64,000 bases of DNA from Candidatus Binataceae bacterium (GTDB lineage Bacteria; Desulfobacterota; Binatia; Binatales; Binataceae): positions 3,356 through 67,355 of the forward strand of contig JADMIL010000007.1 of the NCBI GenBank assembly GCA_015478645.1. The letters are read 5' to 3'. Both the position numbers and the translations under genes were made by a program. A model generated the notes under the pieces. It saw only the letters and a list, made by a program, of their open reading frames with translations, searched no databases and had not been told where the DNA came from. Shown here piece by piece: positions 1 to 56,391 of the stretch (the stretch's first letter is position 1; each line of letters begins with the position of its first letter).

Positions 1-384
1 GGCGAGTTCGTCACCAGCCTGACGACCTGGGAGTTGCGCGAGGAGATGAGCGCGACGTCGGCCGACGTCGGACCCGAGGTCAGCGAGCCCGAGGTCGCGG
101 GCCTCGAGATGGCGCCGTCGATCGCGGTCAAGCCGCCGCGGGTGAAAAAATCGCCGGTCGCGCTCGAGTGCAAATACTGGAAGACCATCGAATTGCCGGC
201 GGTGGGCGCGGGCGCGATCGCCTACGCGATCGTGATCGGCGAGGTCGTCGGGATCTATATCGACGACGCGGTGATCGTCGAAGGCCGGATCGATCTGTCG
301 GGCGCGCGGCCGATCGCGCGGCTCGGCTACCTCGATCAATACGCGGTGGTCGATACGATCTTCAAAATGCGCCGCCCCGGCTGA
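1..384 (+). CDS. Flavin reductase-like domain protein (FMN-binding split barrel), C-terminal part; 5' end truncated by window edge
   Basis: The ORF is open from nt 1 in frame 1. The C-terminal pattern '...ALECKYW...IGEVVGIYIDD..IDLSGARPIARLGY' is typical of the flavin reductase family. Confidence 0.55.
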   Translation, partial: GEFVTSLTTWELREEMSATSADVGPEVSEPEVAGLEMAPSIAVKPPRVKKSPVALECKYWKTIELPAVGAGAIAYAIVIGEVVGIYIDDAVIVEGRIDLSGARPIARLGYLDQYAVVDTIFKMRRPG

Positions 385-487: not shown

Positions 488-575
488 GCGCGGGATTCAT
501 TCGCTGCGGCAACCTGCGCTCAGAATGACAGGAGAAGGGAGCGTCCGTCATTCTGAGCGCAGCGAAGAATCCCGA
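488..575. repeat. Nested palindromic intergenic repeat, copy A (same family as 33634-33748 and 50696-50809)
   Basis: The outer arms are cgggattcattcgctgcg and cgcagcgaagaatcccg. The inner arms are tgcgctcagaatgac and gtcattctgagcgca. It shares the core 'ctgagcgcagcgaagaatccc' with copy B and 'cgctcagaatgaca' with copy C. Confidence 0.6.
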
Positions 576-641: not shown

Positions 642-1118
642 CTATTTCTTCGACCAGAACTCCCAATCCCGCGCAAAATCCTGCACCGTAATCGCCCGGC
701 GCAGGCTAAAGTCGGTATTCAGCAGATCGTAAATGTGATCGTCGGTGCCGCGCATGCTGAAATAGACCACGACGCCGTCGTCGCCGCCGCCCTCGATATG
801 AATCTCGTTTTCGGCGCCGCTCGAGAACGAGCCGGCCGGCTTGACCTTCTCGACCACGCCATTGGCGGTCTGATCGAAAACGTGGAGCGACCCTTCGAGC
901 ACCATCGTGGTGGTGGCGGCGACGTGGCGATGGAACAGGCAGCGTGCGCCGGGGTCGAATTTGACCAGTATATCGGCCGTATGGGTGGCCACGTTGACGT
1001 CGAGAATCTTGTAATAGCAGCCGTCGGTGAGGAAATCTTTCCAGTCGACTTGGGCGGTATCGTAGCGGAAGCCCGCGGCATTGGTCTTGGGCGTCGCGGC
1101 CAACGTGTTCTCGTTCAT
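642..1118 (-). CDS. Cupin domain protein (ChrR-like cupin)
   Basis: An ATG at 1118 (MNENTLAA...) is preceded by a gaggga RBS. The HRH...EG motif lies in a cupin barrel. The protein is paralogous to the bicupin at 43809-44477. The longer TTG-initiated extension in the ORF track is unlikely. Confidence 0.6.
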   Translation of the reverse strand: MNENTLAATPKTNAAGFRYDTAQVDWKDFLTDGCYYKILDVNVATHTADILVKFDPGARCLFHRHVAATTTMVLEGSLHVFDQTANGVVEKVKPAGSFSSGAENEIHIEGGGDDGVVVYFSMRGTDDHIYDLLNTDFSLRRAITVQDFARDWEFWSKK

Positions 1119-1240
1119 TCGATTCCCTCGTAATCGACGGAAATTCAGGTGCGTCTCGTCGTGGTGATGTAAAAGTATCTCACGGGGCGGCGACGGTCTA
1201 TCCGATCGCGAGTTTGCGCCGCGCCGCATCGCGTAACGCA

Positions 1241-1276
1241 AACCGGCCGGCGCTAATCACCGGCCCGGTTTTTTCA
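1241..1276. terminator. GC-rich hairpin flanked by an A-run and a T-run (aaaccggccgg-cgctaatca-ccggcccggtttttt), lying between convergent or adjacent genes
   Basis: An 11-bp stem with one bulge, followed by TTTTTT on the plus strand. It lies immediately 3' of the minus-strand LLM gene stop at 1296, where only a short U-tract follows on that strand. Confidence 0.35.
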
Positions 1277-33100: not shown

Positions 33101-33544
33101 CTATGGCTTGAACCATTCGGCCGATCGCGCCAGCGTCGGGTAGCCCGAGCCGATCTGGATCAGGACGCCGTGACTCGCGCGCGGCGAGATGAACGCCTCG
33201 TACGAGTCGGGTGCGAACTCGCGCTCGTCGACCATGCGCAGGCCGTCGGCCTTCATTTGGGTAATTTTTTCTTTCGCATTCGGCACGTCGAACGTCAGAT
33301 GGTGCAGCCCCTCGCCGCGCTTTTCCAGAAACGCGTGGAGAAACGACTTCTCGCCCAACGGTTCGAGCAGCTCAAAGGTCGTTCCATTCAGATCGAGTTC
33401 GATCAGCCGATACCCGGCTGCGCGATTTTCATGTTCATAAAGAAAGCGCGCGCCGAGCACGCCCTCGAAGAACTTGCGCGCCTCGCTGAGGCTCTTCACG
33501 GCTATGCCGATGTGGTCGAGTTTACCGATGGGTTCGTTGGCCAT
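33101..33544 (-). CDS. VOC family protein (methylmalonyl-CoA epimerase / glyoxalase-like)
   Basis: A glyoxalase-fold N-terminus (LDHIGIAV) and the motif GLHHLTF. An ATG at 33544. Confidence 0.7.
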   Translation of the reverse strand: MANEPIGKLDHIGIAVKSLSEARKFFEGVLGARFLYEHENRAAGYRLIELDLNGTTFELLEPLGEKSFLHAFLEKRGEGLHHLTFDVPNAKEKITQMKADGLRMVDEREFAPDSYEAFISPRASHGVLIQIGSGYPTLARSAEWFKP

Positions 33545-33633
33545 GCGCGGCGCCTCAACGCCTGCGCGCAATTTAGGGGCGTGGCGGACCGATCGTCAAG
33601 CGCGCCTTGCACGGCGCGGCAAAAGCGCGCATC

Positions 33634-33748
33634 TAGGAAACCTCTGCACCAGGCTCTGCGGTCACCCTGAGCGCAGCGAAGAATCCCGGATCCAGGACCC
33701 CTTCGCTTCGCTCAGGGTGACCGCAGAGCCTGGTGCAGAGGTTCCCTA
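33634..33748. repeat. Nested palindromic intergenic repeat, copy B (~115 bp with ~48-bp inverted arms)
   Basis: The left arm is taggaaacctctgcaccaggctctgcggtcaccctgagcgcagcgaag. The right arm is its near-perfect reverse complement around a ~20-nt centre. It is related to copies at 488-575 and 50696-50809. Confidence 0.65.
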
Positions 33749-33754
33749 GCGCCT

Positions 33755-34231
33755 ATGCCAGTGGTCCCGTGGAAAATGCCGCCGATTGCCAAAGTTTACG
33801 AGGCGCTCGGCGCGGTCGGTGACGGCCGGGTCGAGATAGTCGACGCCGCCCGCGCCATGGTCGCCTCGTCCGACGGCGCCAGGCGCTATGAAGTGACGAT
33901 TTCCGCTGACGGCCGCGAGGTCTCGTCCAACGACAACGCGTCGTTCTGGCAGGGTTATCTCGGCTATCCGGCGATCGCCGTGATGATCGTGCGCGGGCTG
34001 ATCGGACGGCCCGCGGAGGCGATCAGCGCGCTGGCCGGCGTGCCGTGGAAGCAACTGAACACGCGCTATCGCAATGATTACGACCGCACGCTGGACGACG
34101 CGCTCGCCCGCGCCGCGGCGCGCGGCTTCGACCCGGCCGCGATTCGCGCGGCCGCCGCCGCGACTCTCGAGGAGTTGCGCGCGCTGGCTCCGCTGCGCGG
34201 GCCGCGCCGTGCGCCGCCGCGCGCGCAATAG
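33755..34231 (+). CDS. Hypothetical protein (158 aa)
   Basis: The ORF has GC3-rich codon usage. No recognisable motif. The start abuts the right arm of repeat copy B. Confidence 0.4.
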   Translation: MPVVPWKMPPIAKVYEALGAVGDGRVEIVDAARAMVASSDGARRYEVTISADGREVSSNDNASFWQGYLGYPAIAVMIVRGLIGRPAEAISALAGVPWKQLNTRYRNDYDRTLDDALARAAARGFDPAAIRAAAAATLEELRALAPLRGPRRAPPRAQ

Positions 34232-48697: not shown

Positions 48698-49381
48698 ATG
48701 GGCAAATACTTCCGGTTCGAGAAGGCGGACGGCGTTGGACGGTTGACGTTCGACTATGCGGCCAAGCGCAATCCGTTCAACGAAGACAGTCTGAGCGAGC
48801 TCGAGGACAATCTGCTCGCCGCGCGCGAAGACGGCGAGGTTCGCGCGCTGGTCCTGACCGGCGTGGGCAATACCTTTTCGGCTGGCGCCGACCTGTCGCA
48901 CATGAAGGGCGTCACCGACGAGGCCGAGCGCCTGCGCCTGTTCAGCTCGGTCGCGCCGCGGCGCGGACGGCTGGTGCGCCGCGTGCTCGAGATGCTCACC
49001 CACCTGGAAATTCCGACTATCGCGGCGGTCAACGGATTCGCGGTGGGCGGCGGCTTTTTCCTGGTGCTCGCCTGCGATTTGCGCATCGCGGTCGCCGGCG
49101 CGGAGTTCTGGATGCCCGAGGTCGACCTGGGTGTGCCGGGTCCGCGCCGGCCCGAGCAATGGCTGGCGGCGCACGTCGGTGCGGCGCGCGCCAAAGAGAT
49201 CGTCATGACCTGCCGGCACTTCAAGGCCGAGGAGCTCTATCAATGGGGGCTGCTCAACCGCGTCGTGGCGAAGGACGAGCTGATGCCGGCGGCGATGGAG
49301 CTCGGACATTATCTGGCCTCGCGCAAGCCCTCCGCGGTGCGCCAGGCCAAGGCCAATATCAACGGTTATACGCTCGACTAG
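48698..49381 (+). CDS. Enoyl-CoA hydratase/isomerase (crotonase) family protein, paralog 1
   Basis: The crotonase oxyanion-hole region (LTGVGNTFSAGADL ... AAVNGFAVGGG) and a ggagga RBS. Confidence 0.8.
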   Translation: MGKYFRFEKADGVGRLTFDYAAKRNPFNEDSLSELEDNLLAAREDGEVRALVLTGVGNTFSAGADLSHMKGVTDEAERLRLFSSVAPRRGRLVRRVLEMLTHLEIPTIAAVNGFAVGGGFFLVLACDLRIAVAGAEFWMPEVDLGVPGPRRPEQWLAAHVGAARAKEIVMTCRHFKAEELYQWGLLNRVVAKDELMPAAMELGHYLASRKPSAVRQAKANINGYTLD

Positions 49382-49447
49382 AAGAGTGCGCGGCGCGCGT
49401 CGAGCGGCTCGCGAGGGCGGCTTGCGGGGCGGCGCAAAGGAAGCCCG

Positions 49448-50143
49448 ATGCCGGATAATTTTCTCGTCGCGAAGGACGGCCCGATCACCACGATCACGTT
49501 CAACCGGCCCGAGCGGCGCAACTGCCTCAACCGCGAGGTGATGACCGAACTCGAAGACCGGCTGCGCGCCGTGCGCAACGATCGCGGCGTGCGCGTGCTG
49601 ATCGTGACCGGCACCGGCGCCGCATTTTCGGCCGGCGCCGACATGACCGTGACCAAAGGCATCGCCGATGCGCAAGCGCGCGCGCGCGTATTTATGGCCA
49701 ACAATGACGGTGGGGCGCGGATGGTCGGGCGCATCTACGATCACGTCACGCGGCTCGACTGCATGACGATCGCCGCCGTCAACGGCTACGCGGTGGGCGG
49801 CGGATGGGCGATCGCGGCCGCGTTCGATTTTATCGTCGCCATCGAGGAGGCCGAATTCTGGGTGCCCGAGGTCGAACTGGGCGCGGCCTTCACCGGCGGT
49901 CCGGCGCTCGCGATGGCGGCGCGGCTCGGGCCCTGGCGCGCCAAGGACGCGATGATCCTGTGCCGCCATTTCAAGGCCCGCGAACTGCACGATTTGGGCA
50001 TGGTCAATCGGGTGGTCAAGCAGGGCGATCTGATTCCGGCGGCGCATAAGCTGGCGCAGGAATTGATTAAGCTGCCGCAAAAGGCGGCGACCCGGACCAA
50101 GCATTTCGTCGACGGCGTGTTTATCGGCGCGCGGCTCTATTAA
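49448..50143 (+). CDS. Enoyl-CoA hydratase/isomerase (crotonase) family protein, paralog 2
   Basis: The motifs VTGTGAAFSAGADM ... AAVNGYAVGGG and an aaggaag RBS. Confidence 0.8.
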   Translation: MPDNFLVAKDGPITTITFNRPERRNCLNREVMTELEDRLRAVRNDRGVRVLIVTGTGAAFSAGADMTVTKGIADAQARARVFMANNDGGARMVGRIYDHVTRLDCMTIAAVNGYAVGGGWAIAAAFDFIVAIEEAEFWVPEVELGAAFTGGPALAMAARLGPWRAKDAMILCRHFKARELHDLGMVNRVVKQGDLIPAAHKLAQELIKLPQKAATRTKHFVDGVFIGARLY

Positions 50144-50190
50144 GGATTCGGCGCGGGGCGCGCCCACGGCGCGCGAGGAGGGCTATTGCG

Positions 50191-50685
50191 ATGATCGTAC
50201 CGGACCGTATCGGCCACGTGGTGATCAAGGTGCGCGACCTCGCACGCTCGCGCCATTTCTATACCGACGTGATGGGCCTCGAAGTGATGATGGAGCTGCC
50301 GCAAATCAAGATGGCGTTCTTCGCCAGTCACGGCCGCGACCATCACGAACTCGCCTGCCTCGAGGTGGGCGAGGCCGCGCCGGCCCCGCCCAAGGGCGCG
50401 GTCGGGCTCTCGCATATCGCGTTTCGCCTGCGCGACGAAGAGCATCTGCGCGCCGCCTACCGCGAGCTCAAGGAAAAGCAGGTGCCGGTGCTCTCGACCA
50501 TCGACCACGGCATCACCAAGAGCATCTACCTGCGCGACCCCGACGGCTATCAAATTGAAGTATATTGCGACACATCGGCGCAAGACCAGGCGCATTTTCC
50601 CAACCCATACGGCGGGATGGAAAAGCTCGAGTTCGCAAAGGACGACCCCGGGATCGGCGACGCGATGCGCAAGCGGCTTAACTAG
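50191..50685 (+). CDS. VOC family protein (single-domain extradiol dioxygenase / glyoxalase-like)
   Basis: The motifs IGHVVIKV...LSHIAFRL and a ggaggg RBS. Confidence 0.75.
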   Translation: MIVPDRIGHVVIKVRDLARSRHFYTDVMGLEVMMELPQIKMAFFASHGRDHHELACLEVGEAAPAPPKGAVGLSHIAFRLRDEEHLRAAYRELKEKQVPVLSTIDHGITKSIYLRDPDGYQIEVYCDTSAQDQAHFPNPYGGMEKLEFAKDDPGIGDAMRKRLN

Positions 50686-50695
50686 GGAACCTCGG

Positions 50696-50809
50696 CACAA
50701 GGCTCTGCGGTCACCCTGAGCGCAGCGCATGGGTCCCGGATCCGGGATTCTTCGCCGCGCTCAGAATGACAACCTGACTTGTGCAGAGGTTCCCTAGACG
50801 ATTGTCGTG
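50696..50809. repeat. Nested palindromic intergenic repeat, copy C
   Basis: The termini are tagggaacctcggcacaaggctctgcggtcaccctgagcgcagcg ... cgctcagaatgacaacctgacttgtgcagaggttcccta. It shares the outer arms with copy B and the inner 'gctcagaatgaca' with copy A. Confidence 0.65.
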
Positions 50810-50865: not shown

Positions 50866-52299
50866 ATGGGTATCCGCAGCGGTAGCGAATTCGTCGAGAG
50901 CCTGCGCGACGCGCGCACGATCTACGCCAATGGCGAGCGCGTGCGCGACGTCACCGACTATCCGCCCTTTCGCGGCATCGTCGCCACGATGGCCTCGCTC
51001 TACGACCTTCAGCATCGGCGGCGCGACGAGCTGACCTTCCCTTCGCCGACCACCGGCGAGCCGGTCAGTGCGAGCTTTATCCTGGCCGACACGCTCGAAG
51101 CGGCCGAGCGCCGCGCGCGCGCCGAGGAGATTCGCGCCGACCATACCTTTGGCCTGATGGGGCGGATGCCCGACTTCTGCAATGCGATGGTCAGTGACGT
51201 GGTCACGGCGCGCGGCTACGTGGGCCGGCGCGAGCCGCGCTACGGCGACAATCTCCAGCGCTACTACGAGGAGGTGCGCGATCGCGACTGGTGCCTGACC
51301 CATACGCTGGTCGATCCGCAGATCGATCGATCGCGCGGGCCGGCCGAGCAGGACGATCCGTTTGCGGCGCTGCGCCTGGTGCGCGAGACCGACTCAGGAC
51401 TCATCGTGCGCGGCGCCAAGATGCTCTCGACGCTGGCGCCCTTTTCCAACGAGCTGTGGGTGGGACCGTTCTATCCGCGGCGTGCGGGCGAGGAGGCCTA
51501 CGCGCTCTGCTTCGCGATTCCCACGGCGACGCCGGGCCTCAAGTTCATCTGCCGCGAGACCTACGACGGCGGGCGCAGCAGCTTCGATCGTCCGCTCAGC
51601 TCGCGCTTTGACGAAGAGGACGCGCTGGCGGTCTTCGACGACGTGCTGGTGCCGTGGGAGCGCGTCTTCATCCATGGCGATATCGAGATCTTCAATGGCG
51701 TCCTGGCGCGCACGCCGGGCTACGCGATGTTGCAGGGTGCGATTCGCGGGATGGTCAAGCTGCGTTTTCTGGCCGGCCTCGCCTGTCATCTGGCGGACGC
51801 GATCGGGCGCAGCGCCCTGCCGCAGGTCCAGTCGCAGGTTGGCGAGCTGGTGGCCAACGCGGAGTTGGTCAGCGGACTGATCCGCGCCGGCACGCAGGAG
51901 GTCACCTGGGGCGCGACACGCGGCACGCCGCATCGCTCGCTCGCGGCGACGCTGTGGGTGATGATCCCGCAGGCGCAGATGCGCGCGGCCGAGGTCATCC
52001 GGCAGTTGAGCGGCAGCGGGCTTATCATGACGCCGACGGAAAAGGATTTCGCCAATCCCGAAATCGCCGGCTACCTGGAAAAATATCTGCGCGGCAAGGA
52101 CGTGAGCGCGCGCGATCGCGTGCAGCTCTTCAAGCTCGCCTGGGACATGATCGGCGAGCCGTTCGGCAGCCGCCAGTTGCAGTACGAATGGTTCTACTCG
52201 GGCGATCCGAATTTCACCCGCTCGCGCTTTTTCCGCTCGCCGATCACGCGCGACTTCAAGGCGATGGTCGATCGGCTGCTCAAGCCGCCCGGCGCCTGA
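50866..52299 (+). CDS. HpaB-family flavin-dependent monooxygenase (4-hydroxyphenylacetate 3-monooxygenase oxygenase component-like)
   Basis: The protein aligns along its length with HpaB (RPLSSRFDEEDALAVFDDVLVPWERVFI; LQYEWFYSG). An ATG at 50866 is preceded by a gggag RBS. The ORF-track extension would run through the repeat. Confidence 0.85.
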   Translation: MGIRSGSEFVESLRDARTIYANGERVRDVTDYPPFRGIVATMASLYDLQHRRRDELTFPSPTTGEPVSASFILADTLEAAERRARAEEIRADHTFGLMGRMPDFCNAMVSDVVTARGYVGRREPRYGDNLQRYYEEVRDRDWCLTHTLVDPQIDRSRGPAEQDDPFAALRLVRETDSGLIVRGAKMLSTLAPFSNELWVGPFYPRRAGEEAYALCFAIPTATPGLKFICRETYDGGRSSFDRPLSSRFDEEDALAVFDDVLVPWERVFIHGDIEIFNGVLARTPGYAMLQGAIRGMVKLRFLAGLACHLADAIGRSALPQVQSQVGELVANAELVSGLIRAGTQEVTWGATRGTPHRSLAATLWVMIPQAQMRAAEVIRQLSGSGLIMTPTEKDFANPEIAGYLEKYLRGKDVSARDRVQLFKLAWDMIGEPFGSRQLQYEWFYSGDPNFTRSRFFRSPITRDFKAMVDRLLKPPGA

Positions 52300-52310: not shown

Positions 52311-53795
52311 TCAGGCGCGCGCGGCGCGGCCGGCCGAGGTTCCCGCGAGGCGGCCGAAGACCGCACCCGACATCAGGCCGGTGCCCCCGGGATAGTTGAA
52401 GTAGAACAGTCCGCCGACCATTTCGCCCGCCGCGTAGAGCCCCGCGATCGGCGCCCCGTCGGTATCGATCACCGCGCCATTCCCGTCGATGCGCAGTCCG
52501 CCGAAGGTAAACGTGATGCCGCAGGTGATCGCGTAGGCCTCGAACGGCGGCGTGTCGAGCGCGTTGGCCCAGTGGCTCTTGTCGATCTTGAGCCCGCGGG
52601 TTGCGCGACCGTCCTTGACGTTGGGATTAAACGGCGTCGCGGTCGCCACGGCGGCGTTGAACTCGCCGACCTCGGCGAGAAAGCCGGCCGCATCGACGTC
52701 CTCGAGCTTGCCGGCCAGTTCCTCGAGCGTTGCGGCGGTCACCCGCGTCACGCGCTTGATCCGGTATTCGTCGCGCAGCAGATGAGCCACCTTGCGATCG
52801 AAGACCTGCCAGGCGAACTGCCCGGGCTGTTCGAGCACCGCGCGTCCATACTTGGCGTAGGTGTAATTGCGGAAGTCCGCGCCCTCGTCGACGAACCGGC
52901 GGCCGCGTGCGTTCACGATAATGCCGAACGGGTAGCTGTGCTTCTGAAAGCCGTCGCCGACGCTCAAGTCGCCGAACTCGGGCGCGTTGCGATCCCATCC
53001 CACCGCGTGGCATCCCGACCAGTTCCCGCAGGGCATCGCGCCAATCGCGAGCGCCATGCGCAGGCCGTCGCCGGTGTTGAAGCGGGTGCCGCGCACCTTG
53101 GCGAGATCCCAGCCCGGGCCGAGGTAGCGCGTGCGCCATTCGGCGTTGGCCTCGAAGCCGCCCGCGGCCAGGATCACGGCGCGCGCCGCGATCGGTGCGG
53201 TGCGTCCGCCGGCGCGCACGAGCACACCGCGCACTCCGCCGTCGTCATGGATCAGTTCGATCGCGCGGCTGGCGTACGCGACCTCGATCGCGTTGCGCTC
53301 GGCCGCGGCGTACAGCGCGTCGACCAGTCCCGGTCCGCCGCCCCACGCCTCGACCGTGAGCCCGCCCCAGAACTTGAACTTGCCGTCGACCTTGAACGCC
53401 TGCCGCCCGTAGATCGGCGCGAACCGCACGCCCTTGCCGCGCATCCAGAGCATCGTCTCGAGGCTCTGGCCGACCAGGGTTTCGGCCAGCGCCGGGTCGG
53501 TGCGGTATTGGGTGACGCGGCAGAGGTCGTCGTAAAACTGATCCTGGCCGTAGACGCCGAAGTCGGTGTTGGCCTTTTCCTCGTCGGTCAGATCGGGTAT
53601 GAGGCGCGCCAGATCGCCGATACCGTCGTACGCCACGCGCATCGCGCCCGCCGTGAAGCGGCTGTTGCCGCCGCGCTCGCCGGGCGGCGCGCATTCGAGG
53701 ACCAGCACGCTCGCCCCGCTCTCGCGCGCGGCCAGTGCGGCGCACAAGGCGGCATTGCCGCCGCCGACCACGATTACGTCATACGCCGAAGCCAT
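52311..53795 (-). CDS. TcuA-like FAD-dependent flavoprotein (tricarballylate dehydrogenase family)
   Basis: An N-terminal FAD fold YDVIVVGGGNAALCAALAARESGASVLVLE and a TcuA-like architecture. Confidence 0.8.
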   Translation of the reverse strand: MASAYDVIVVGGGNAALCAALAARESGASVLVLECAPPGERGGNSRFTAGAMRVAYDGIGDLARLIPDLTDEEKANTDFGVYGQDQFYDDLCRVTQYRTDPALAETLVGQSLETMLWMRGKGVRFAPIYGRQAFKVDGKFKFWGGLTVEAWGGGPGLVDALYAAAERNAIEVAYASRAIELIHDDGGVRGVLVRAGGRTAPIAARAVILAAGGFEANAEWRTRYLGPGWDLAKVRGTRFNTGDGLRMALAIGAMPCGNWSGCHAVGWDRNAPEFGDLSVGDGFQKHSYPFGIIVNARGRRFVDEGADFRNYTYAKYGRAVLEQPGQFAWQVFDRKVAHLLRDEYRIKRVTRVTAATLEELAGKLEDVDAAGFLAEVGEFNAAVATATPFNPNVKDGRATRGLKIDKSHWANALDTPPFEAYAITCGITFTFGGLRIDGNGAVIDTDGAPIAGLYAAGEMVGGLFYFNYPGGTGLMSGAVFGRLAGTSAGRAARA

Positions 53796-53867: not shown

Positions 53868-54788
53868 TCACTTGCGCGCGCGCAGGTCCGGCGGCACGGC
53901 GCTATGCGCGATCGACTCGTCGAGCGCCTCGTAATCCGCGTAGCCGATAGTTTCGTACAGATCCGCGCGCGTCTGCATCCGCTCGAGCATCGCGGAGGCG
54001 CCGCCGTCGCGCATGATTGTGCCGTACAGATCGCCGATCGCATGCGCCGCGACGCGCAATGACGAGACCGGCCAGATGACCAGCTTGAAGCCGAAGGCGG
54101 CGAACTCGCCGGCGCTGAAATACGGCGTGCGGCCAAACTCGGTCATGTTGGCGAGCAGCGGGGCGTCGATCGCGCCGGCGAATTTCCGGAACATTTCGGC
54201 GGTCGTGAGCGCCTCGGGGAAGATCACGTCGGCGCCGGCCGCGCGATAGAGCCGGGCGCGCGCGATCGCCGCGTCGAGGCCCTCGACGCCCGCCGCGTCG
54301 GTCCGCGCGATCACCTTGAGATGGCGCCGCGCGCGCACCGCCGCCGCGACCTTGGCCGCCATCTCGTCGGGCGCGACCAGCCGCTGGTCGTTCAGATGGC
54401 CGCATTTTTTTGGCAGTTGCTGGTCCTCGAGTTGAATCGCCGCGGCACCGGCGTCTTCGAGTTCGCGCACCGTGCGCATCACGTTGAGCACGCCGCCATA
54501 GCCGGTATCGCCGTCGACGATCAGCGGAATCGCCGCCGCGCGCGCGATTGTGCGGGTGAACAGGCAAAGCTCGTCGAGGCCCAGAATCCCCAGGTCGGCG
54601 AGACCCAGGCTCGCGCTTAACGCCGCACCCGACAGATAGATCGCCTTGAAGCCGGCGCGCATCGCGAGCATCCCAGCAAGAGCGTTGTGCGCGCCGGGAA
54701 CCATGACGATCCCCGGTGCACGCCACAATTGCGCGAGCCGTTCGCCCGGCGGCGCGTGGTCCGCCCGGTCGTTGGTTAGCCAGGTCAT
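53868..54788 (-). CDS. Isocitrate lyase / PEP mutase family lyase (2-methylisocitrate lyase-like)
   Basis: The family signature K-K-C-G-H (PKKCGHL) and DGDTGYGG. Confidence 0.8.
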   Translation of the reverse strand: MTWLTNDRADHAPPGERLAQLWRAPGIVMVPGAHNALAGMLAMRAGFKAIYLSGAALSASLGLADLGILGLDELCLFTRTIARAAAIPLIVDGDTGYGGVLNVMRTVRELEDAGAAAIQLEDQQLPKKCGHLNDQRLVAPDEMAAKVAAAVRARRHLKVIARTDAAGVEGLDAAIARARLYRAAGADVIFPEALTTAEMFRKFAGAIDAPLLANMTEFGRTPYFSAGEFAAFGFKLVIWPVSSLRVAAHAIGDLYGTIMRDGGASAMLERMQTRADLYETIGYADYEALDESIAHSAVPPDLRARK

Positions 54789-54918: not shown

Positions 54919-56391
54919 ATGCCGGACTACGACGTTATCGTGGTGGGTGCGGGCAACGCCGCGCTGGCGGCCAGCGTAGCCGCGCGCAATGCCGGTGCGG
55001 AGCGCGTCCTGGTGCTGGAAAAGGCGCCCGAGGCGATGCGCGGCGGCAATACGCATTACAGCGGCGGCCTGCTGCGCATCGCGTTCGACCGGGTCGACGA
55101 GATTTTGCACCTGGTGCCCAAGGCGCGCGAGCTGCCGGGCTTCGTCGAAGGGATCGAAGCCTACCCGCGCGACGCTTTCATGGCCGACCTCAAACGGATG
55201 ACGGCGAACCGCACCGATCCCGAGCTGGCGGAAATTCTGGTCGCCAATTCCTACGCGACCGCATCCTGGATGGCCGACCAAGGGATCCGCTTCGAGCCGG
55301 CGATCTCGCTCGGCGCGGTCCGCGTCGGCAACCTGATCAAATGGCCCAAGGGCGCGATTATCCGCGCCGTGCATGAGGGCGTGGGGCTCTCGCGGATGTG
55401 GTTCACGGCGGCCGAGCGCAAGGGCGTGACGATTCGCTACGGCGCCGCCGCGACGCGCCTGGTGCTCGACGGCGCGGGCCGCGTATGCGGTGTGGCGGTG
55501 CGCGACGCCACCGGCCTCCACGAAGTCGCGGGGCGCGCAATCGTGCTCGGCTGCGGCGGCTTCGAAGCCAACGCCGCGTGGCGCGCGCAATATCTCGGCC
55601 GCCCGTGGGACCATGCCAAGGTGCGCGGCACCCCGCATAACCAGGGTGACGGGCTGCGCATGGCGTGCGAGATCGGCGCGATGCCGTGGGGGCAATGGAG
55701 CGGATGCCACGCGACGCCGATCAATGCCGAGGCGCCGCCCTTCGGCGATCGCCAGCTCACCGACAAGACCAATCGCCTCTCGTATCCGTACGGCGTGATG
55801 ATCAACCGGGCGGGCCTGCGCTTCGTCGACGAGGGTGAGGACCAGGCGTTTTTCACCTACGCCAAGTTCGGCGGGATAATTCTCAACCAGCCCGGCGGCG
55901 TGGCGTATCAGATTTTCGATTCCAAGGTGCGCCATCTGCTCGAGCCGCGCTATGCGACCAGCGATCCGATCGCGGCGGCGAGCCTCGCCGAACTGGTCGA
56001 TCGGATCGACGTCGATCGCGAGGCTGCGCGGCGCACACTCGAGCAGTATAACGCGGCGGCCGGCGAGGGCTTGTTTAATCCGGGCGATCGCGACGGGCTG
56101 GCGACGCGCGGCCTGGCGCTGGGCAAATCCAACTGGGCGCAGCGGCTCGACACGCCGCCGTTCCTCGCGTGGCCGGTCACCGGCGGCATCACGTTCTCGT
56201 TCGGCGGCCTCAAGATCAACGATCGCGCGCAGGTCGTCGGCACCAACTGGGAGCCAATCGCGGGACTCTATACGTGCGGCGAGATGGTCGGCGGGCTGTT
56301 CCACAGCAACTATCCCGGCGGCTCGGGCCTGATGTCGGGAGCGGTCTTCGGCCGCATCGCGGGCGCCAGCGCGGCGCGCGACGGAAAATAG
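54919..56391 (+). CDS. TcuA-like FAD-dependent flavoprotein, second paralog
   Basis: The motif YDVIVVGAGNAALAASVAARNAGAERVLVLE. It is paralogous to the protein at 52311-53795. Confidence 0.8.
   Translation: MPDYDVIVVGAGNAALAASVAARNAGAERVLVLEKAPEAMRGGNTHYSGGLLRIAFDRVDEILHLVPKARELPGFVEGIEAYPRDAFMADLKRMTANRTDPELAEILVANSYATASWMADQGIRFEPAISLGAVRVGNLIKWPKGAIIRAVHEGVGLSRMWFTAAERKGVTIRYGAAATRLVLDGAGRVCGVAVRDATGLHEVAGRAIVLGCGGFEANAAWRAQYLGRPWDHAKVRGTPHNQGDGLRMACEIGAMPWGQWSGCHATPINAEAPPFGDRQLTDKTNRLSYPYGVMINRAGLRFVDEGEDQAFFTYAKFGGIILNQPGGVAYQIFDSKVRHLLEPRYATSDPIAAASLAELVDRIDVDREAARRTLEQYNAAAGEGLFNPGDRDGLATRGLALGKSNWAQRLDTPPFLAWPVTGGITFSFGGLKINDRAQVVGTNWEPIAGLYTCGEMVGGLFHSNYPGGSGLMSGAVFGRIAGASAARDGK

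Follow-up and report, generated by a model that had tools for sequence, protein, structure and literature searches.

The insertion sequence (IS) IS5 uses a 4-bp target, YTAR. Transposition of MITEPsy1 was captured in Pseudomonas syringae; this miniature inverted-repeat transposable element (MITE) is 100 nt long, bears IS5-type repeats of 18 nt and is flanked by a duplication of 4 nt, CTAG/YTAA (PMC3189936). In this study, three palindromic intergenic repeats, designated copies A, B and C, were analyzed in a stretch of 64,000 nucleotides from a Candidatus Binataceae bacterium (contig JADMIL010000007.1, positions 3,356 to 67,355; hereafter referred to as the window). Based on their ends and flanks, B and C are very probably non-autonomous MITEs of an IS5-group IS within the IS5 family, and A is a dimer of their inner hairpin module devoid of such ends. 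This kind of mobile DNA is well understood, and with B and C it is seen in a soil lineage that has received little study; MITEPsy1 is their closest documented analogue.

Compared with MITEPsy1/ISPsy2 of P. syringae pv. phaseolicola, B and C agree in being non-coding elements of approximately 100 nt with 16-18-nt IS5-type repeats (GGAAGGTCTGAAAAAGCC vs. GGAACCTCTGCACAAG) and a 4-nt CTAG or YTAA duplication, which would have been derived from, or mobilized by, an IS5-family element of approximately 1.2 kb (PMC3189936). They differ in repeat sequence, in host phylum (here Binatia) and in their core, which is here an inverted pair of hairpins resembling repetitive extragenic palindromic (REP) sequences. 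Moreover, MITEPsy1 was caught transposing experimentally, whereas B and C are known here from sequence.

Correia elements of Neisseria are likewise MITEs of approximately 100-150 bp with terminal repeats, which are located in operons and form long hairpins when co-transcribed; in contrast to B and C, they show a TA duplication and 26-nt repeats of another family, and RNase III processing as well as promoter activity are documented for them. The system of REP doublets forming hairpins (REPINs) and REP-associated tyrosine transposases (RAYTs; Bertels and Rainey 2011) resembles the present repeats in that a short tagged hairpin is dispersed over intergenic DNA as inverted doublets, each folding into a single long hairpin. 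REPINs possess a GTAG/GTGG head that is not present here, whereas B and C possess terminal repeats and target duplications of the DDE type. Furthermore, a superfamily of CGTC/TGTC-tagged REPs, e.g., dRS3 of Neisseria and RPE-4/-6 of Rickettsia, was described by Di Nocera et al. (2013; PMC3733652). As far as the text of that publication describes them, its members appear to share several features with the inner module of B and C and with copy A. These are an unpaired (C/T)GTC tag, a stem beginning with A-T followed by T-A, a short loop and a C-rich tail of 3 nt; furthermore, the repeats often form inverted dimers, are spread over many phyla and lack a dedicated transposase.

IS5-type ends of copies B and C

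Both B and C are bounded by 16-nt terminal inverted repeats, GGAACCTCTGCACAAG. Screening of the window for the 17-mer CTAGGGAACCTCTGCAC with up to three mismatches returned four matches, which are the four ends of B and C (0.04 expected), in agreement with the earlier note on this DNA, which had described the outer termini as common to the two copies. Furthermore, the left 46 nt of C and B share 93% identity, and 89 nt of C match the reverse complement of B at 90%.

The terminal 19-mer TAGGRAACCTCKGCACMAG was searched in one genome per species and detected in at least 97 genome stretches (L091-L187; compared loci are denoted by L numbers). Among the matches listed, these stretches belong to Binatia, Acidobacteriaceae, Thermoanaerobaculia, Gemmatimonadota, Dehalococcoidia, Gamma- and Betaproteobacteria, and many of the matches are located approximately 100 nt from a contig end. 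Reading outward from each match, two kinds of inverted terminus pairs were obtained, namely 40 short pairs (90-290 bp apart) and, in other genomes, 10 long pairs (1166-1207 bp apart). Six of the 10 long elements (L107, L108, L159, L184, L153 and L162) showed intact or 1-mismatch ends as well as identical flanking tetranucleotides.

The element of L184 is 1172 bp long and contains one open reading frame (ORF), whose product was assigned to NCBIfam transpos_IS5_4 (324.8 bits, cutoff 140) and to Pfam DUF772 and DDE_Tnp_1; the best named relative of this transposase is that of ISXfu1 (53% identity). ORFs of six other full-length elements are 36-71% identical to each other and to the L184 ORF. Moreover, 5' ends of IS elements featuring the same terminus and an L184-like transposase N-terminus were found in metagenome-assembled genomes (MAGs) labelled Candidatus Binatus (L129, L092, L123). 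Because the same ends bound elements of 1166-1178 bp in other genomes, one of which (L184) encodes an IS5-family transposase, B and C would represent the short, gene-less form of an IS5-group IS.

This transposase family (NCBIfam IS5_4, Pfam DUF772 and DDE_Tnp_1) also includes the transposases of E. coli IS5 and of ISXfu1 from Xanthomonas. The end of E. coli IS5, GGAAGGTGCGAACAAGTC, was confirmed by matches of 100% identity in E. coli genomes and agrees with GGAACCTCTGCACAAGTC at 12 of 18 positions; the ISXfu1 ends, GGAAACTCTGAACAAT, which are flanked by CTAA, are related to those of B and C. In contrast to both IS elements, B and C are gene-less and only one tenth as long, and their ends form a distinct clade in soil phyla. 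A conserved IS5 subterminal motif was considered as the origin of GTCATTCT, since it is found in copies from Acidobacteriaceae and, in a loose form (GTCATCTGGAGC), in E. coli IS5; this idea was rejected because the motif is missing at the ends of L184, L107 and L108.

A search of the 64-kb window with the L184-type transposase (tblastn) yielded no match, so that any mobilization of B and C must occur in trans. A DDE transposase encoded elsewhere by a full-length copy of approximately 1.17 kb with the same ends would bind both terminal repeats, cut out or copy the element and insert it at a YTAR tetranucleotide, which would then be duplicated upon repair of the staggered cut.

As a separate observation, exact matches to the 19-mer TAGGGAACCTCTGCACAAG were obtained in at least 97 stretches, which represent at least eight bacterial classes, whereas full-length copies encode transposases sharing only 36-71% identity. 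With its nearly invariant 16-nt end, the terminal repeat is conserved far more strongly than the transposase.

Target duplication, empty sites and dispersal

Copies B and C are flanked by CTAG on both sides. At a lone CTAG site, the 4-bp duplication of IS5 and the TA duplication of IS630 are indistinguishable. Across the family, seven of 10 elements with TTAG on the left also carry TTAG on the right, and none of the 27 elements whose left flank does not begin with T has a right flank beginning with T (Fisher p = 1.2e-5). Since the first base co-varies between the flanks, the duplication comprises 4 bp at YTAR, as in IS5.

For copy C, empty sites were identified at eight orthologous junctions between a VOC gene and an HpaB gene in metagenomes (L189-L194, L198, L211), where the element is missing; the HpaB proteins of these orthologues are 82-84% identical at the amino acid level over the best matching segment. 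In the C-less orthologues, the VOC gene ends with CTAG, TTAG or GTAG and is directly followed by the spacer which in the window follows the right-hand CTAG. As read from this alignment, MITE C appears to be inserted at the CTAG of the VOC stop codon, which it regenerated. For copy B, the window without positions 33637-33749 is colinear with L336/L337 across the junction, apart from a single 1-nt gap; the junction reads GCGCGCAT-CTAG-CG-CCTATGCC in the window and GCGCGCAT-TAAC-CGAGCGATGG in L336. The empty sites of both B and C carry only one tetranucleotide. A previously chosen orthologue of the B locus, L217 (71% amino acid identity), was too diverged to define an exact empty site and was replaced by L336/L337.

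The coordinates of all parts follow from these comparisons. Copy B extends from 33633 to 33749 and represents a near-perfect palindrome of 117 nt including both CTAGs. In the repeat search of the window its arms (33633-33681 and 33701-33749) measured 49 nt each, with 96% complementarity and a gap of 19 nt, which bears out the arms of approximately 48 bp reported in the earlier note. The left target-site duplication (33633-33636, CTAG), read in the sequence, and the right one (33746-33749, CTAG) correspond to one tetranucleotide in the alignment with the MITE-less orthologue. They enclose MITE B proper (33637-33745, 109 bp), a symmetrized, near-perfect-palindrome variant of the family. Its left terminal inverted repeat, GAAACCTCTGCACCAG (33637-33652, plus strand), matches the IS5-group end GGAACCTCTGCACAAG of the full-length elements, and its right one, GGAACCTCTGCACCAG on the minus strand (33730-33745), was defined by the terminus scan and by paired-end analysis of the family. 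Relative to the general plan of the family, 22 nt of the right subterminal region of B were replaced by the complement of its own left arm, and for this reason B is an almost perfect palindrome.

Copy C with its flanking CTAGs occupies 50682-50797; the location 50696-50809 proposed previously lies approximately 13 nt too far to the right. The left duplication (50682-50685, CTAG) provides with its TAG the stop codon of the VOC gene (50191-50685), and the right one (50794-50797, CTAG) was recognized in the sequence and by the terminus scan. MITE C (50686-50793, 108 bp) shows the canonical asymmetric form of the family, bounded according to the terminus scan by the left terminal inverted repeat GGAACCTCGGCACAAG (50686-50701, plus strand) and the right one, GGAACCTCTGCACAAG on the minus strand (50778-50793).

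C differs by two mismatches from an element at an unrelated locus in a different Binatia MAG (L155). At least six near-identical copies (L095, L132, L141, L145, L155, L174) are located on different contigs of one Binatia MAG, DAHVFB, and two copies, B and C, lie within 64 kb of the source contig. Uniqueness to the window, which had been named as an observation that would speak against a repeat family, is contradicted by these copies, by the at least 97 terminus-bearing stretches and by at least 88 viral contigs featuring the inner module. Furthermore, short-read contigs from independent assemblies of the window's organism end inside C (L089 at 50772, L090 at 50711) and B (start of L220, 33723); such contig breaks are the usual signature of a dispersed repeat.

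Inner hairpin module and copy A

The interior of the MITEs does not originate from the transposase gene and consists of an inverted pair of a REP-like module. This core module of approximately 28 nt, (C/T)GTCAYYCTGAGCGCAGCGAAGRRTCC, forms as an inverted pair the core of B and C and makes up A. Exact or 1-mismatch matches to it were found six times in the 64 kb, all within A, B and C; at up to two mismatches, 12 matches were obtained in the window vs. 3.0 expected. In B, the left copy, GTCACCCTGAGCGCAGCGAAGAATCCCGG (33661-33689, plus strand), was located by an exact 14-mer and the right copy (33693-33721, minus strand) by a match with one mismatch. In C, the left copy reads GTCACCCTGAGCGCAGCGCATGGGTCCCGG (50710-50739, plus strand; stem variant ACCC/GGGT), and the right copy (50742-50770, minus strand; stem variant ATTCT/AGAAT) corresponds to the complement of GTCATTCTGAGCGCGGCGAAGAATCCCGG.

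Copy A (488-575) consists of two inverted copies of the inner module GTCATTCTGAGCGCAGCGAAGAATCCCG, with exact matches to GTCATTCTGAGCGC at 516-529 (minus strand) and 547-560 (plus strand). Its left module (491-529, minus strand) has a 10-nt insertion in the loop and no adjoining terminal repeat; its right module, cCGTCATTCTGAGCGCAGCGAAGAATCCCG (547-574, plus strand), was detected by the module scan and is CGTC-tagged. The tags of the dimer point inward, and a stretch of 31 nt in A is 94% complementary to the right arm of C. The outer termini of B and C (CTAGGGAACCTCTGCAC, up to three mismatches) were not found in A. Moreover, A is part of a stretch of approximately 220 nt that is missing from the closest orthologue, L222 (cupin 95% identical at the amino acid level; spacer of 37 nt vs. 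257 nt in the window), and a search for terminal repeats around A or around this lineage-specific insert found none. Copy A is therefore not a MITE; it is a dimer of the hairpin module found in B and C and lacks terminal repeats. Accordingly, the earlier proposal that A was built from the inner module holds, since two inverted copies were recovered and only this module is shared with B and C. The mobile, modular MITE/REP-like family assumed for all three copies is retained for B and C, as IS5-family MITEs; the three copies do not constitute one family, as A lacks terminal repeats.

Beyond the window, at least 88 viral contigs with GC contents of 40-71% contain GTCAYYCTGAGCGCAGCG, which occurs there as a single copy or as an inverted pair spanning 61-133 nt. 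Inverted dimers were observed in A, B and C and in 28 of 104 viral contexts, and 47 module matches in the fetched loci lie away from any terminal repeat. Pairs free of outer repeats comprise copy A, L124, L128 and the 28 viral contexts. Among the MITE-like elements listed, the module GTCAYYYTGAR is present in 12 of 12 from Binatia (DAHVFB)/Binataceae and in two of nine from Thermoanaerobaculia; in the remaining lineages it occurs in two elements only, one from a delta/Binatia(?) genome and one from Longimicrobiales. MITEs of other lineages with the same ends possess quite different cores.

In 81 of 83 modules, the two variable positions of the stem show covariation with the 3' half, on which the search placed no constraint (TC/GA 40, TT/AA 38, CC/GG 3), a pattern that could partly result from the spread of a few master copies. 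Further stem variants, ATCCC/GGGAT and ACCCC/GGGG, were found in Acidobacteriaceae and Thermoanaerobaculia loci. The predicted fold of a single module features a 5-bp stem (ATYCT/AGRAT), a tandem G.A, two pairs and a triloop, with a stability equal to that of shuffled sequences (z approximately 0). The tail reads CCC or CTC, and in the ACCC variant the second stem position departs from the T-A rule. The right module of A is tagged with CGTC, the left module of A and the right module of C with TGTC, and B as well as the left module of C with GGTC, while viral copies mostly carry TGTC or CGTC.

In comparison with the CGTC-tagged REPs, which show 8-9 clean pairs in the text of PMC3733652, the present module has five Watson-Crick pairs, a tandem G.A/A.G and two pairs, its loop core GAGCGCAGCGAAG is not among the sequences given in that text, its tag is GGTC in B and in the left arm of C, and a single module does not exceed shuffled controls in stability. 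The core module resembles CGTC-REPs and was filed as CGTC-REP-like, not as a proven member of the superfamily. According to the same text, CGTC dimers of Halothiobacillus are always embedded in a 41-bp palindrome, GGGaaGCTT-GAAAaACC... (PMC3733652), which by its sequence looks like an IS5-type end.

A speculative and rather unlikely proposal is that the core (C/T)GTCAYYCTGAGCGCAGCGAAGRRTC represents an undescribed, cross-phylum and phage-borne branch of CGTC/TGTC REPs, with IS5-type ends as one vehicle for its spread. If true, IS5-type ends ferrying REP dimers would answer the question of how CGTC REPs move and would link two repeat classes that have been treated separately. The association of module and ends seen in Binatia/Binataceae and Thermoanaerobaculia recalls the palindrome-embedded CGTC dimers of Halothiobacillus. 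The core hairpin is short and tagged; its loop, which contains a tandem G.A, is conserved and its stem covaries. It occurs in several soil phyla, is absent from Rfam and is the only part with some novelty potential.

Regarding the viral copies, module orientation relative to genes was 24 against 14, and this weak bias was too slight to regard the module as an RNA element based on strand preference. Similarly, a scan of viral contigs for the loop alone (TGAGCGCAGCGAAG), intended as a source of unbiased covariation, was uninformative, as it returned mostly chance matches in coding sequence (three of 106 listed were tagged). A few viral hairpins keep the loop TGAGCGCAGCGAAG with unrelated complementary stems (e.g., CCTACTTC/AAGTAG, GCAGTACC/GGTACA, CGTCATGC/CATCTC), some of them without the GTC tag; this loop may be the conserved functional part.

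Competing explanations and neighbouring genes

Several points weigh against the assignment of B and C to transposed IS5-type MITEs. Their transposition is a proposal derived from sequence comparison. No transposase with GGAACCTCTGCACAAG ends was found in the 64-kb window, and the proposed presence of a partner in the same cell is based on L184 and on Binatia MAGs related to the source. Identical flanks were observed in only 14 of 40 family members, which weakens a strict target-duplication reading; non-identical flanks are expected for old insertions. Furthermore, a MITE belonging to another subfamily is located exactly at the C site in L188, whose DNA is 94.5% identical to the window over 7.4 kb. 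A history of one single insertion fails for this site, where recurrent insertion at YTAR or conversion between copies could have occurred. The L188 element (2806-2935 of that locus) has a decayed left terminal repeat, is flanked by CTAA/CCAA and is far more diverged than its flanking DNA.

An origin from IS630/Tc1-mariner MITEs, which insert at CTAG and duplicate the central TA only, would be compatible with any single site considered here, since a TA and a CTAG duplication look the same there and CTAG, at which both copies are located, is the classic target of IS630. This origin is nevertheless extremely unlikely, given that the first flank base co-varies across the family (TTAG with TTAG, p = 1.2e-5), so that 4 bp were duplicated, that among the full-length elements with these ends (GGAACCTCTGCAC) the ORF tested (L184) belongs to the IS5 family and not to IS630, and that similar ends are found in E. 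coli IS5, ISXfu1 and MITEPsy1. Highly improbable, too, is the explanation that the copies are REPINs, i.e., inverted REP doublets moved as single-stranded DNA by a RAYT (an IS200-like tyrosine transposase), in which case the outer repeats would be no more than a portion of the hairpin. It would account for a core composed of an inverted pair of short hairpins with an unpaired 5' tag, for such pairs occurring without outer repeats (A, L124, L128, 28 of 104 viral contexts) and for the covarying stem (81 of 83), but not for ends of B and C that are identical to DDE-type IS5 ends and accompanied by a 4-bp duplication, which HUH/Y1 transposition does not generate. Moreover, the tag is (C/T/G)GTC and not a GTAG/GTGG head, and the CGTC-type REPs are without an associated RAYT as far as they are described in the text of PMC3733652, no RAYT search having been made here.

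The palindromes could also represent cis-regulatory RNAs of the host, i.e., terminators, attenuators or mRNA-stabilizing hairpins under selection, whose repetition reflects function. All copies are intergenic, with C in an operon spacer and B abutting a start codon, and the predicted RNA folds are very stable on both strands: -102/-113 kcal/mol for B (z about -17 vs. shuffled sequences), -74/-79 kcal/mol for C (z -9 to -10) and -52/-50 kcal/mol for A (z -6.5). The fold check suggested by the earlier note thus showed all three copies to be far more stable than shuffled controls; its suggestion of a terminator role found no support, since a terminator scan revealed neither a U-tract nor a terminator-like site overlapping A, B or C. 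The whole elements fold into very stable hairpins on either strand because of the inverted module pair. An Rfam search of the whole window at gathering thresholds returned no matches, and an E-value search on B returned only sub-threshold eukaryotic miRNA-hairpin models and mraW; the hits to MIR1846 (50.7 bits, threshold 77.5) and mir-9242 (47.8, threshold 62) at 33641-33741 were dismissed as generic long-hairpin similarity. Likewise, the promoter scan detected no promoter-like site within the elements and one for the VOC gene outside B. Close orthologues function without the elements, the genomic contexts differ (convergent, divergent and co-directional), and terminal repeats together with target duplications are foreign to regulatory RNAs, making selection for such a role very unlikely. 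Chance palindromes in GC-rich DNA, of which the window provides thousands of weak examples (2171 inverted-repeat pairs), can be dismissed in view of 49-nt arms at 96%, four termini vs. 0.04 expected, z values of -9 to -17 and near-identical copies elsewhere. For B and C as IS5-type MITEs, selfish dispersal is the most likely account of the elements' function.

Gene annotation agrees with the three contexts, convergent, divergent and intra-operon, that had been assigned to the copies beforehand. Copy A lies between a convergent flavin-reductase fragment (34-384, plus strand) and a Cupin_7 gene (642-1241, minus strand). Copy B separates a VOC/glyoxalase gene (33101-33544, minus strand) from a divergent PF27709 gene (33755-34231, plus strand). 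Copy C is located between the co-directional VOC gene (50191-50685, plus strand) and a gene encoding an HpaB-like monooxygenase (start at 50866, plus strand). According to the predicted fold, a possible side effect of C would be the introduction of a -74 kcal/mol hairpin into the spacer and transcript of the VOC-HpaB operon.

The ATG of the PF27709 (UCP014422) gene begins 5 nt past the right CTAG of MITE B, and the sole Shine-Dalgarno-like run, AGAGG (33737-33741), is located within the right terminal repeat of B, 13 nt before this start codon. Due to this position, transcription from upstream would leave AGAGG base-paired within the hairpin of -102 kcal/mol. Judged by these positions, sequestration or provision of the Shine-Dalgarno-like AGAGG of the PF27709 gene by B is a possible side effect.

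The analysis adds a documented IS5-family MITE with empty sites for Binatia, for which knowledge of this soil lineage comes almost exclusively from MAGs. B and C explain short-read assembly breaks at these points, and such elements fragment Binatia MAGs. Furthermore, palindromes of 109 bp can mislead gene callers, as ORFs run through them, as well as RNA-motif screens, and miRNA-precursor models pick up bacterial MITEs. A literature search by sequence strings returned chance primer matches only.

Further repeats of the window concern paralogous genes. Tandem enoyl-CoA hydratase (ECH_1) paralogues (48700-50150), which share a 34-nt repeat, are encoded just upstream of the VOC-HpaB pair. In addition, two divergent FAD_binding_2 flavoprotein paralogues (52311-53795, minus strand, and 54919-56391, plus strand; 50% amino acid identity) flank a PEP_mutase/isocitrate-lyase-family gene (53868-54788, minus strand), and the longest inverted repeats in the window are due to this paralogue pair.

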